In this document: positions 905-63,853 of the stretch, one piece after another
How positions within the stretch are numbered: position 1 is the first letter of the stretch
How the letters are laid out: every line of letters starts with the position of its first letter
Source of the DNA: a virus
Lineage: Duplodnaviria; Caudoviricetes
Reading direction: 5' to 3' (one strand)
IMG/VR virus record: IMGVR_UViG_3300025789_000018
Length of the DNA: 64,000 bases
The notes under the pieces: model-generated
Told to the model about the DNA's origin: nothing
Database searches by the model: none
What the model saw: the letters and a program-made list of their open reading frames with translations, nothing else
Translations under genes and position numbers: made by a program

Positions 905-1145
905 TCGTTCCTCTTTTAAATTAACGATTCTGGCGATTGCATGTGTCCTTATAGAGCGTCTCATCTCGTGACAGTGATACAATGCTAAAAGAAGATACAA
1001 ATAATGGATACTCTCGGGTATCTTCTAGTCCATCTCCCTCTTACTGGAGTTGCAAAATCATTATGCTTTTATGGCGGTAATCCGCTGCTTTCTTCTGAAA
1101 GCTATGTAAGAGCTCATGGAGGCCATGCCTCCGATTATATTTATA
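905..1145 (-). promoter_or_regulatory. Late promoter (TATAAATA 1138-1145) plus long structured leader of SleB paralog 1
   Basis: Block 1017-1055 matches 59698-59737 at 35/40 positions; CTCTTAC/GTAAGAG and AGAAGATAC/GTATCTTCT stems present in both copies. Confidence 0.7.
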
Positions 1146-59079: not shown

Positions 59080-59108
59080 AGTCGATCCTGTATGTTTTGT
59101 CAAGAGAT

Positions 59109-59134
59109 AAAGGGGCAGCCGAAGCCACCCCTAA
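59109..59134 (-). terminator. Intrinsic terminator after SleB paralog 2
   Basis: AGGGGTGGC-TTCG-GCTGCCCCT followed by a short T-run. Confidence 0.7.
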
Positions 59135-59140
59135 ATCTAT

Positions 59141-59590
59141 TTATGCGATTTTATAGAATATGTGATGACCTATCGTCACAACTCTCTTGTACTTCCAATG
59201 TGGATTTACATAGTTTGCATGATAGAAGATTGCGCCATTAATGTTGTCTCCTACATGTCCGTAGTAAACAGAACGAGCAACTTGCTTATTCTTTTCATAT
59301 AGGTCTTGATATACAATCTTAGGATGGTGATGAATCCAGCTAAACTGGTGTTTCATAGCAATAACTTCACATGGAGTTTTAGCATAGCCTTGTTTTACAC
59401 GATTCATTATTACATTTGCAACTGCAACCTGACCATTTAGTGGCTCACCACGGGCTTCAAAATAGATTGTCTGTGCTACGCATTCTAGTTGCGCTTGATC
59501 GTGTTTTGGTGTTTGTGCCATTGCTTGTGGTATTACAACCAACAGTGCGAGAGTGGCAATCGCCTTGAAGATTTTATTTAGGTAAGACAT
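59141..59590 (-). CDS. SleB/Hydrolase_2 cell-wall hydrolase (paralog 2)
   Basis: CVAQTIYFEARGE..VIMNRV..QFSW..FYHANYVNPHW..IGHHIFY; signal-like N-terminus. Confidence 0.9.
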   Translation of the reverse strand: MSYLNKIFKAIATLALLVVIPQAMAQTPKHDQAQLECVAQTIYFEARGEPLNGQVAVANVIMNRVKQGYAKTPCEVIAMKHQFSWIHHHPKIVYQDLYEKNKQVARSVYYGHVGDNINGAIFYHANYVNPHWKYKRVVTIGHHIFYKIA

Positions 59591-59867
59591 TTCTTCCCTC
59601 TTAGGTTCGAAGACCTAGGCGACAACTGAAAGTCTTATAGGGTATCTCAACCCGTACAGACAGCTATGCTATGAGAAGATACAAAGTAAATGTATATGGT
59701 ATCTTCTACATCCATTTCCCTCTTACTGGAAATGCAAGATCGTCGTTGTTTCGTTTGAATCATATCGATAGTATAACGTGATACTGTAGATATAATGCTT
59801 ACTAGCCATCGCAGACTTGAAGCGTTGTAAGAGTACAATGGAAGTAGAACTTCCAATGGTATTTATA
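59591..59867 (-). promoter_or_regulatory. Late promoter (59860-59867) plus structured leader homologous to 905-1145
   Basis: Same ordered blocks: 5' GGAAG/CTTCC hairpin, CTCTTAC...GTAAGAG, AGAAGATAC...GTATCTTCT, TGAGA loop, CTATAAG, TCGCC. Confidence 0.7.
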
Positions 59868-59874
59868 TGAGACA

Positions 59875-60062
59875 TATTCTAGACCGTGCCTAGGTTGATC
59901 GCGAATACGTCTGCGCTTCCATCTCGGCGCAGATTGACACTTACTCCTCATCCCTGGAGCAGTTATCGGATAGTCCTCTTTGGTGCGCTTATGGTGGATT
60001 CCATCCAGAGGCGTAAGAGGCTCAGAAAACCCATACATATGTAACAGAGGTATGGGTCATAT
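59875..60062 (-). ncRNA. Putative ~190-nt multibranch RNA E behind TATAAGTA (60069-60076)
   Basis: Stems 60029-60036/60050-60057, 59940-59944/60013-60017, 59975-59979/60007-60011, 59910-59916/59927-59933. Confidence 0.4.
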
Positions 60063-60071
60063 TGTCTTTAC

Positions 60072-60377
60072 TTATACACTAGTTTTACGTGGTTGTCTAG
60101 TCTTTTTTGGAGCAGCAGGTGCAGATGGCTCTGGTGCTACCTTTGGTGCCCTAGGCTTACGCGGTGGCTTGGGCTTATCTGGCTGCTTGCTGCGATGTAG
60201 AATGATGATACCCTTAGATCGCAGTTCACGAATAATCTTACCATGATCCATTAGAAGCTTGTTAAGTGCTTCCTTATCAACAGGAGCATTAGGAGCCTTG
60301 CGCTTCAGATACTTGTCCACAGATTCGTGAATACCATGAAACTCTTCATCTGTGCAATCTAGATATATTGCGGCCAT
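60072..60377 (-). CDS. Hypothetical protein with Pro/Lys-rich tail
   Basis: ORF in the minus-strand run. Confidence 0.55.
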   Translation of the reverse strand: MAAIYLDCTDEEFHGIHESVDKYLKRKAPNAPVDKEALNKLLMDHGKIIRELRSKGIIILHRSKQPDKPKPPRKPRAPKVAPEPSAPAAPKKTRQPRKTSV

Positions 60378-63592: not shown

Positions 63593-63669
63593 TGGTCTAC
63601 CATGAGAGATTTGAACTCCCGATCTCCTGGCCCCAAACCAGGCGGATTACCAGACTTTCCTAATGGTAG
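63593..63669 (-). tRNA. tRNA-Pro (UGG)
   Basis: CTACCAT/ATGGTAG-ACCA acceptor stem, CCTGG-TTTGGGG-CCAGG, TTCAAAT T loop. Confidence 0.9.
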
Positions 63670-63677
63670 ACAATAAT

Positions 63678-63777
63678 CTATTTAGATGAACAATGAACGT
63701 TCAAGTTCTGGTCCTGATTTTCATACCATCTAGCGCCTTACGTCTAGTTCGTAATAGATCATTGTTCATCAAAATAG
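63678..63777 (-). ncRNA. Putative small structured RNA C (GAUGAAC family) between two tRNAs
   Basis: CTATTT-T-GATGAACAATGA / TCATTGTTCATC-T-AAATAG terminal stem; two inner hairpins. Confidence 0.55.
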
Positions 63778-63779
63778 TC

Positions 63780-63853
63780 TGGTGCCGATAAGAAGAATCG
63801 AACTCCTGTCAGAGGGTTACAAATCCACTGTATTACCACTATACTATATCGGC
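63780..63853 (-). tRNA. tRNA-Thr (UGU) with mismatched anticodon stem
   Basis: GCCGATA/TATCGGC-ACCA acceptor stem, TTCGATT T loop; anticodon stem GTGGA/CCCTC has U-U and A-C mismatches. Confidence 0.85.

Follow-up and report, generated by a model that had tools for sequence, protein, structure and literature searches.

A candidate family of pseudoknotted RNA leaders ahead of SleB-type endolysin genes of T4-like phages from freshwater metagenomes

The two SleB-like cell-wall hydrolase genes of an uncultured freshwater phage are each preceded by a long structured leader, and both leaders are, as judged by sequence comparison, members of a real, widespread, and well-supported family of structured RNAs that occurs solely in association with a phage lysis enzyme. 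The window analyzed here is the whole 64,000-nucleotide stretch of a Caudoviricetes genome (IMG/VR record IMGVR_UViG_3300025789_000018). With slightly more confidence than doubt, the leaders are read as a new family of pseudoknotted domains of about 250 nt that are made from late promoters and act in cis on the translation of exported SleB-type endolysins in uncultured freshwater T4-like phages. The leader probably acts in cis on translation. A sequence-only reading of the window had proposed a conserved cis-regulatory RNA of unfamiliar class on a late murolytic gene. This proposal gained support from covariation, from a gene link that held at 203 of 203 loci, and from the lack of an Rfam match.

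The window phage is T4-like, and all public runs containing window DNA are freshwater metagenomes (DNA). Both hydrolase genes are located on the minus strand. Hydrolase A (356-904) has 182 aa with a predicted N-terminal hydrophobic export segment, and hydrolase B (59141-59590) has 149 aa with a signal-peptide-like N-terminus. Pfam assigned both to Hydrolase_2 (PF07486) with E-values of 1.2e-21 and 2.1e-23 and 77.7 and 83.3 bits, respectively, above the curated cut-off of 27 bits. The coordinates of the two paralogs, each described earlier as carrying a promoter and a long leader, were thereby confirmed. Protein identity between A and B is only 39%. In cultured phages, SleB-type homologs are mostly annotated as endolysins. 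Directly after SleB A follows a gene for a gp33-like late-transcription coactivator (113-352, minus; PF16805, E 1.3e-17). With TATAAATA at -10 and a late coactivator encoded in the genome, both elements of T4-type late transcription were found, and use of the promoter is predicted. The window also carries a permuted tmRNA (2471-2757, minus; RF04321, 72 bits; ARAGORN tag AHNDNDFAAVRMSA) as well as tRNA-Pro(UGG) and tRNA-Thr(UGU) (63593-63853, minus; Rfam gathering threshold). A 256-aa ORF on the plus strand (1699-2469) abuts the tmRNA gene and begins with a GIY-YIG-like motif. It had no Pfam match at E 1e-3, and homologs of it were present in 12 of the fetched leader loci.

A search of the window with a covariance model (CM) of the family, R1, returned exactly two copies, at 206 and 144 bits. 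Leader B (59591-59859, minus, 269 nt) matched at full length with 206.1 bits (E 6e-53), and leader A (905-1137, minus, 233 nt) matched at full length with 143.8 bits (E 2e-36). Both are free of ORFs, with the late promoter at one end and the Shine-Dalgarno sequence (SD) at the other, and their folding z-scores against shuffles were -3.1 for leader A and -2.4 for leader B.

All elements of copy A lie on the minus strand. The T4-type late promoter TATAAATA (1138-1145, read from the sequence) is followed by hairpin P1 (GGAGG/CCTCC, 1118-1132), the pseudoknot 5' strand CTCTTAC (1106-1112, partner 1038-1044), a shortened P2 (1088-1101), and P3 (1073-1086). The P4 5' strand (1055-1062) pairs with the P4 3' strand (923-930) and closes a three-way junction, which holds hairpin P5 (1031-1052), P6 (GAAGATAC ... 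GTATCTTC, 991-1025), and P7 (933-985). The P5 loop (1038-1044, GTAAGAG) is the pseudoknot 3' strand, while the P6 3' strand, at 991-998 and with flanks at 986-1001, is proposed to serve as the anti-SD. Within P7, positions 965-967 pair with 954-956 to form the inner hairpin P7a, with UGAGA in its loop. The SD AAGAGG (910-915), the spacer, and the ATG (902-904) were read from the sequence at 902-915.

Copy B, likewise on the minus strand, has its late promoter TATAAATA at 59860-59867 (read from the sequence), followed by P1 (GGAAG/CTTCC, 59840-59854), the pseudoknot 5' strand CTCTTAC (59827-59833), P2 (59798-59822), and an enlarged P3 (59759-59796). Its three-way junction domain (59609-59744) is closed by P4 (59737-59744 with 59609-59616) and contains P5 (59713-59734, with the pseudoknot 3' strand GTAAGAG in the loop at 59720-59726), P6 (59675-59706), and P7 (59619-59669, with P7a at 59640-59653). 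The SD AAGAGGG (59596-59602), the spacer, and the ATG (59588-59590) were again read from the sequence (59588-59602).

Most of the shared blocks that had been listed from the sequence alone stood up. The 5' hairpin was present in both versions, and the change from G-C to A-U in copy B is compensated (pair 16-34 of the CM alignment). The block at 1017-1055 and 59698-59737 was recounted as identical at 35 of 40 positions, and both the GAAGATAC/GTATCTTC stem with its variable loop and the hairpin with the UGAGA loop were found. For CTCTTAC and GTAAGAG, the blocks and their pairing were upheld, but their arrangement as a stem around a nested variable insert was not: since GTAAGAG lies inside the loop of the local hairpin P5, the pairing is a pseudoknot rather than a simple nested stem.

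Several features were also observed upstream of the two leaders. The approximately 550 nt upstream of leader A (1146-1698) contain no convincing ORF, and a sub-threshold, truncated alpha_tmRNA-like Rfam match occurs at 1587-1750. Ahead of leader B, a hairpin rich in G+C and a T run behind it (about 60030-60062) resemble an intrinsic terminator and come after the ORF at 60072-60377. Approximately 160 nt of further non-coding DNA separate this putative terminator from the late promoter of leader B (gap region 59868-60071).

In total, 212 leader loci were fetched from viral and metagenome contigs, recognized by nhmmer, and 104 of their sequences were distinct and full length. Viral contigs were scanned with two independent short patterns, one placed in P5 and the pseudoknot loop and one in P6, the latter letting the P5/pseudoknot region vary. 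Metagenome contigs were scanned with a third pattern. Two chance matches to the first pattern, one at a gene for a recombinase-like protein (L067) and one at a psbA-like gene (L077), were left out.

Every leader with a readable downstream frame (203 of 203) was located directly before a SleB-like ORF. These ORFs comprised 120 distinct proteins; 200 had BLAST matches at 35-100% identity, and three were truncated at contig ends. An N-terminal hydrophobic segment occurred in all 115 full-length proteins of the family. A gp33-like homolog followed the SleB gene in 165 of the 212 loci, as at copy A, and the context of copy B, with a glutaredoxin neighbour, was found again in 28 loci. Among 94 representatives, the promoter before the leader was a perfect TATAAATA in 70 and NNTAAATA in the rest, placed 5-14 nt before P1. 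The position of the leader between the late-promoter consensus and the SD was constant, from which its status as a 5' leader is predicted.

This arrangement bears on the idea that the element is an independent gene for a trans-acting small RNA that merely lies upstream of SleB. The permuted tmRNA at 2471-2757 shows that the same genome carries a stand-alone RNA gene, but no terminator was found between leader and SD, in every member the last helix ends at a steady distance of 6-10 nt from the SD, the leader was duplicated together with the gene in the window genome, and it was never found away from a SleB gene. Such a small RNA gene is considered highly improbable.

A protein-coding role was also rejected. 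Stop codons occur in every frame of every member, and leader lengths fall across all three residues modulo 3. The in-frame ORF of copy A that starts at TTG (356-1000) is not conserved in the family. Translation of the region as an N-terminal extension, which had been named earlier as a finding that would overturn the RNA reading, was excluded as no frame is open across the family.

The consensus fold begins with P1 (GGAGG/CCUCC), followed by the single strand CUCUUAC, the bulged hairpin P2, and P3, a hairpin that varies in length and sequence. The conserved joining strand ACCGACGAAAAC (J3/4) leads into P4, which closes the three-way junction of P5, P6, and P7, and P7 carries the inner hairpin P7a with a UGAGAU loop. 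The 5' strand CUCUUAC pairs with the P5 loop GUAAGAG in a pseudoknot of 7 bp. In all members, 6-10 nt separate the last helix of the leader from the SD (AAGAGG).

Covariation was assessed on three alignments. In a MAFFT alignment of 35 sequences, 97.4% of the cells were paired against 43-54% in slid controls, with 21 compensated pairs; in a MAFFT alignment of 60 sequences, these values were 94.5%, 42-52%, and 29, respectively. Neither MAFFT alignment had been fitted to a structure. The CM-based alignment of 94 sequences gave 96.4% against 42-51%, with 30 compensated pairs. None of 500 shuffles reached the score in any of the three. The check for covariation that had been called for was thus answered by compensatory change at 21-30 pairs. 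An unsupervised mutual-information scan placed all of its top 10 pairs inside the structure and had pseudoknot pairs among its top 20. A conserved structured domain, one mark of a riboswitch, is supported by covariation in the three alignments and by mutual information.

The covariance model R1 comprises 259 positions and 56 pairs. The pseudoknot was left out of it, so pseudoknot pairing in the CM-based alignment was not fitted. All 94 aligned sequences nevertheless have it paired, three of its positions covary, and it occurred as CUCUUAC/GUAAGAG, UCCUUAC/GUAAGGA, CCUUUAC/GUAAAGG, and CCAUUAC/GUAAUGG together with G-U intermediates. P1 was paired in 100% of the 94 sequences with one covarying pair, all six pairs of P3 covary in the family, and the P5 stem has four covarying pairs. 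P6 is the sole long helix without any covariation: both of its strands are invariant, whereas comparable helices all covary. The paired columns contained 295 G-U cells against 33 A-C cells, which identifies the SleB sense strand as the functional RNA strand.

Selection on RNA pairing was first indicated by a relative of copy B, with a protein identity of 72% and a leader identity of 94%. In this relative, CTCTTAC is changed to TCCTTAC and its partner GTAAGAG to GTAAGGA, a double compensatory change that, as read from the sequences, is the first sign of such selection. Across the family, leader identity is 67% over 246 well-occupied columns where protein identity is 40-50%. In three lake runs labelled as metatranscriptomic but probably made from DNA, the contigs were solely those of a relative at about 89% identity. 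Over 59100-59950, these runs (X25-X27) matched the leader and the gene ends at more than 85% identity, while the middle of the SleB coding sequence (59238-59510) fell below 85%; in the relative, this middle is replaced by 274 unlike letters. That the leader stays above 85% identity while the coding middle drops below it again suggests a tighter constraint on the leader than on the gene.

Leader A is the most diverged member, with a lower CM score than all other members but one. It has lost the inner hairpin of P2, leaving P2 as a simple hairpin, and another sequence stands in place of the conserved J3/4 strand. Lacking the conserved J3/4 and part of P2, leader A may work differently or may be decaying. 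As the phage has two SleB genes, leader A may evolve under relaxed or altered constraint.

The invariance of P6 is central to the mechanism that is proposed. The P6 5' strand GAAGAUAC resembles the SD and spacer, which read GAGGAUAC in many members. When 14-nt windows along the leader were compared in energy calculations, the P6 3' strand was the best partner for the SD window, with a mean of -10.2 kcal/mol where other windows gave -7.1 or weaker, and ranked as the top SD partner in 37 of 60 sequences. In many members, the duplex of the P6 3' strand with the SD has 10-12 contiguous pairs and -13 to -15 kcal/mol, extending from before the SD to the start codon. For copy A, a duplex of -13.4 to -14.7 kcal/mol was computed. 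A few lineages have a weak alternative duplex, with values of about -5 to -6 kcal/mol in L028, L076, and L054. When several members were folded without constraints, the minimum-energy structure had the P6-3':SD helix in place of P4 and P6, and the energies of this alternative fold were close to those of the native fold plus pseudoknot. As P6 is invariant, the P6-3':SD helix rests on energy calculations and not on covariation, and part of the complementarity is simply that of a purine-rich SD meeting a pyrimidine-rich strand. One column pair that fits the P6-3':spacer helix (274-394, in alignment A6) was considered as covariation and not counted, as it splits two clades and its register is ambiguous.

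A two-state translational switch is a plausible model for these features. With the domain folded, the invariant pyrimidine-rich P6 3' strand UUGUAUCUUCU would be held by the 5' strand GAAGAUAC, which would act as a mimic of the real SD and spacer GAGGAUAC. With the anti-SD strand locked in P6, the SD would be free and the enzyme would be made. Once P6 is open, its 3' strand would pair with the SD and spacer, up to the AUG in many members, and the ribosome would be blocked. RNAalifold chose CUCUUAC as the conserved anti-SD, a choice that was rejected as the primary pairing since changes in this strand are matched in the P5 loop and the SD does not change with them. In particular, the clade with CCAUUAC keeps the SD AAGAGG, so that pairing of the pseudoknot strand with the SD is not the conserved interaction. 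The CUCUUAC strand may still serve as a secondary anti-SD in most lineages, where it is able to pair with the SD, and the unfolded domain would then offer two anti-SD strands.

The folded state could be stabilized by a small ligand, making the leader a riboswitch of the 'on' type, by a protein bound to it as an operator, or only by the order of co-transcriptional folding, in which case it would act as a timer. Secreted and signal-anchored endolysins are a setting in which control of synthesis is relevant to lysis timing, and since the hydrolases of this family carry their own export signals, control of their synthesis could matter for when the cell is lysed. As a tentative possibility within the switch model, the domain could be a phage-only riboswitch class that binds a host-cell metabolite or second messenger and switches on translation of the exported endolysin.

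Alternatively, a phage or host protein could bind the folded domain as a translational operator and repress or activate SleB translation. T4 uses protein-RNA operators of this kind (gp32, gp43, and RegA) on other mRNAs, which gives T4-type phages a precedent. The long invariant single-stranded stretches J3/4, J5/6, and J6/7 would suit protein contacts, and restriction to one phage clade would fit a clade-specific protein partner. However, the known T4 operators are short elements lying over the SD or AUG, whereas the leader is about 250 nt long, has a pseudoknot, and stops 6-10 nt short of the SD. Among the loci examined, no gene co-varied with the leader as a candidate partner, and the usual neighbour is gp33-like, while gp33 is not known to bind RNA. 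An operator is regarded as unlikely.

The leader could also be purely structural and constitutive, shielding the late mRNA from nucleases at its 5' end, presenting the SD as a fixed enhancer of translation, or delaying it by slow folding. 5' hairpins stabilize bacterial and T4 mRNAs, P1 is a stable hairpin a few nt from the predicted 5' end, and the minimum-energy folds of both window copies keep P4 and P6. Yet a stabilizer needs neither a pseudoknotted domain of 250 nt with invariant junctions nor a sequence-frozen helix that mimics the SD and its complement, and the other late genes of the window have no such leader. This explanation, too, is regarded as unlikely. Very little weight is given to a self-cleaving ribozyme or RNA-processing signal that would trim the late transcript to a translatable SleB mRNA. 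The sequence-only reading had listed a ribozyme among its options, a pseudoknotted fold with highly conserved unpaired nucleotides would suit it, and catalytic leaders on cell-wall-related genes have a precedent in the glmS ribozyme, but none of the ribozyme families in Rfam matched at E up to 10, no candidate cleavage site stood out as conserved, and the anatomy requires no catalysis.

The leader was then placed against known RNA families and sequenced genomes. At the gathering threshold, Rfam returned only the tmRNA and the two tRNAs for the whole window and no match to the leaders. When both leaders and two other members were searched against Rfam 15 at E up to 10, only chance-level matches to snoRNAs and similar families appeared. 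The families covered include c-di-AMP/ydaO, c-di-GMP-I/II, glmS, manA, wcaG, and the known ribozymes, none of which reached its gathering score. A match to a described family, which would have removed the novelty claimed earlier, was thus absent for the four members.

Three leaders searched with blastn against 50,697 records of cultured phages gave no match, and the nearest of the virus records compared (G001) shared just a 16-nt chance match with the leader. A degenerate 31-nt core pattern run on 185,579 prokaryote species genomes (one each) produced 24 hits, approximately the number expected by chance, none of which was real by nhmmer. Distant SleB loci in other viral contigs (L002-L017) had short, unrelated upstream regions without nhmmer or CM matches. 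The loci of two cultured phages with SleB-type endolysins, the T4-like Stenotrophomonas phage IME-SM1 and the T5-like Klebsiella phage Sugarland, gave no CM match with filters off. At the T5-like locus, the gap before the gene is only 65 nt long. In the IME-SM1 locus (L306, 903-1390), a gap of 583 nt that is annotated as empty and precedes the endolysin gene reads by eye as an unannotated ORF with a terminator-like hairpin behind it instead of a structured leader. Given its absence from the cultured phages, the species genomes, and the distant SleB loci searched, the leader looks like an invention of one uncultured freshwater T4-like clade. Full-text searching of the literature turned up no account of such a leader ahead of SleB-type genes in phages.

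The usual account of when phages lyse their hosts invokes proteins, namely holins, antiholins, and signal-anchored endolysins. A large, strongly conserved RNA domain with a plausible SD-hiding switch, predicted to lie on the endolysin mRNA of an abundant uncultured freshwater phage clade, suggests that lysis is also controlled at the level of RNA. If the riboswitch reading is true, lysis timing would be set partly by an RNA sensor and not by holin proteins only. Should there be a ligand, the family would count as a rare virus-confined riboswitch class, reporting a cue that the phage reads before destroying its host. The leader family is a well-supported candidate for RNA family databases, and its 104 natural variants with a covarying pseudoknot form a ready target for structure probing. 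In T4-like metagenomic contigs, the leader can further serve as an annotation marker for a late lysis gene.

The manA and wcaG motifs, the bacterial leaders of cell-wall hydrolase genes, and the T4 lysozyme hairpin share neither sequence nor architecture with the leader family, although each resembles it in part. In early transcripts of T4 lysozyme (gene e), soc, and I-TevI, an mRNA hairpin hides the SD, and a late promoter inside the hairpin leaves the late mRNA open, so that hairpin formation depends on the promoter used. Gene e thus also belongs to a T4-type phage and controls translation of a wall-degrading enzyme by an RNA structure that occludes the ribosome-binding site, as is proposed for the leader. 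While the gene e structure is a simple hairpin, the leader is a pseudoknotted domain of 250 nt upstream of the SD on the predicted late transcript itself. The T4 operators, including the gp32 pseudoknot and the RegA and gp43 sites, differ in being short and in overlapping the SD or start codon, a form that the leader of about 250 nt does not have.

A 2023 catalogue of csRNAs from IMG/VR used the same data source and approach and reports 8,495 anonymous candidates, 879 of them no more than 25 nt from a gene start (PMC10690425). Its main text highlights leaders before GP20 and GP32, with a discussion of the structures upstream of gp32, and that main text mentions no hydrolase, endolysin, or lysis gene. 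The leader family, or part of it, could be listed as an undescribed number in the tables of this catalogue. Structured 5' leaders linked to peptidoglycan-degrading enzymes are also found in bacteria, where the c-di-AMP (ydaO) riboswitch and the lysM-* and M23 motifs lie upstream of cell-wall hydrolase genes (Weinberg et al. 2017, PMC5737381). These are bacterial elements with unrelated folds, whereas the leader is a phage element without an Rfam match, and a link to c-di-AMP is not part of the evidence for it. Closest in kind are the manA and wcaG motifs, orphan, covariation-supported candidate riboswitches from presumed 5' UTRs of T4-like cyanophages, for which aquatic metagenomes are the main source (Weinberg et al. 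2010, PMC2864571). The leader is similarly an orphan covarying motif in presumed 5' leaders of T4-like phages known from metagenomes. However, manA and wcaG are smaller and showed no sequence or structure match to it in the Rfam scans, and manA also occurs in bacteria, while the leader family was absent from the 185,579 species genomes searched with the core pattern. Finally, manA and wcaG precede metabolic or exopolysaccharide genes, whereas the leader precedes a lysis enzyme.
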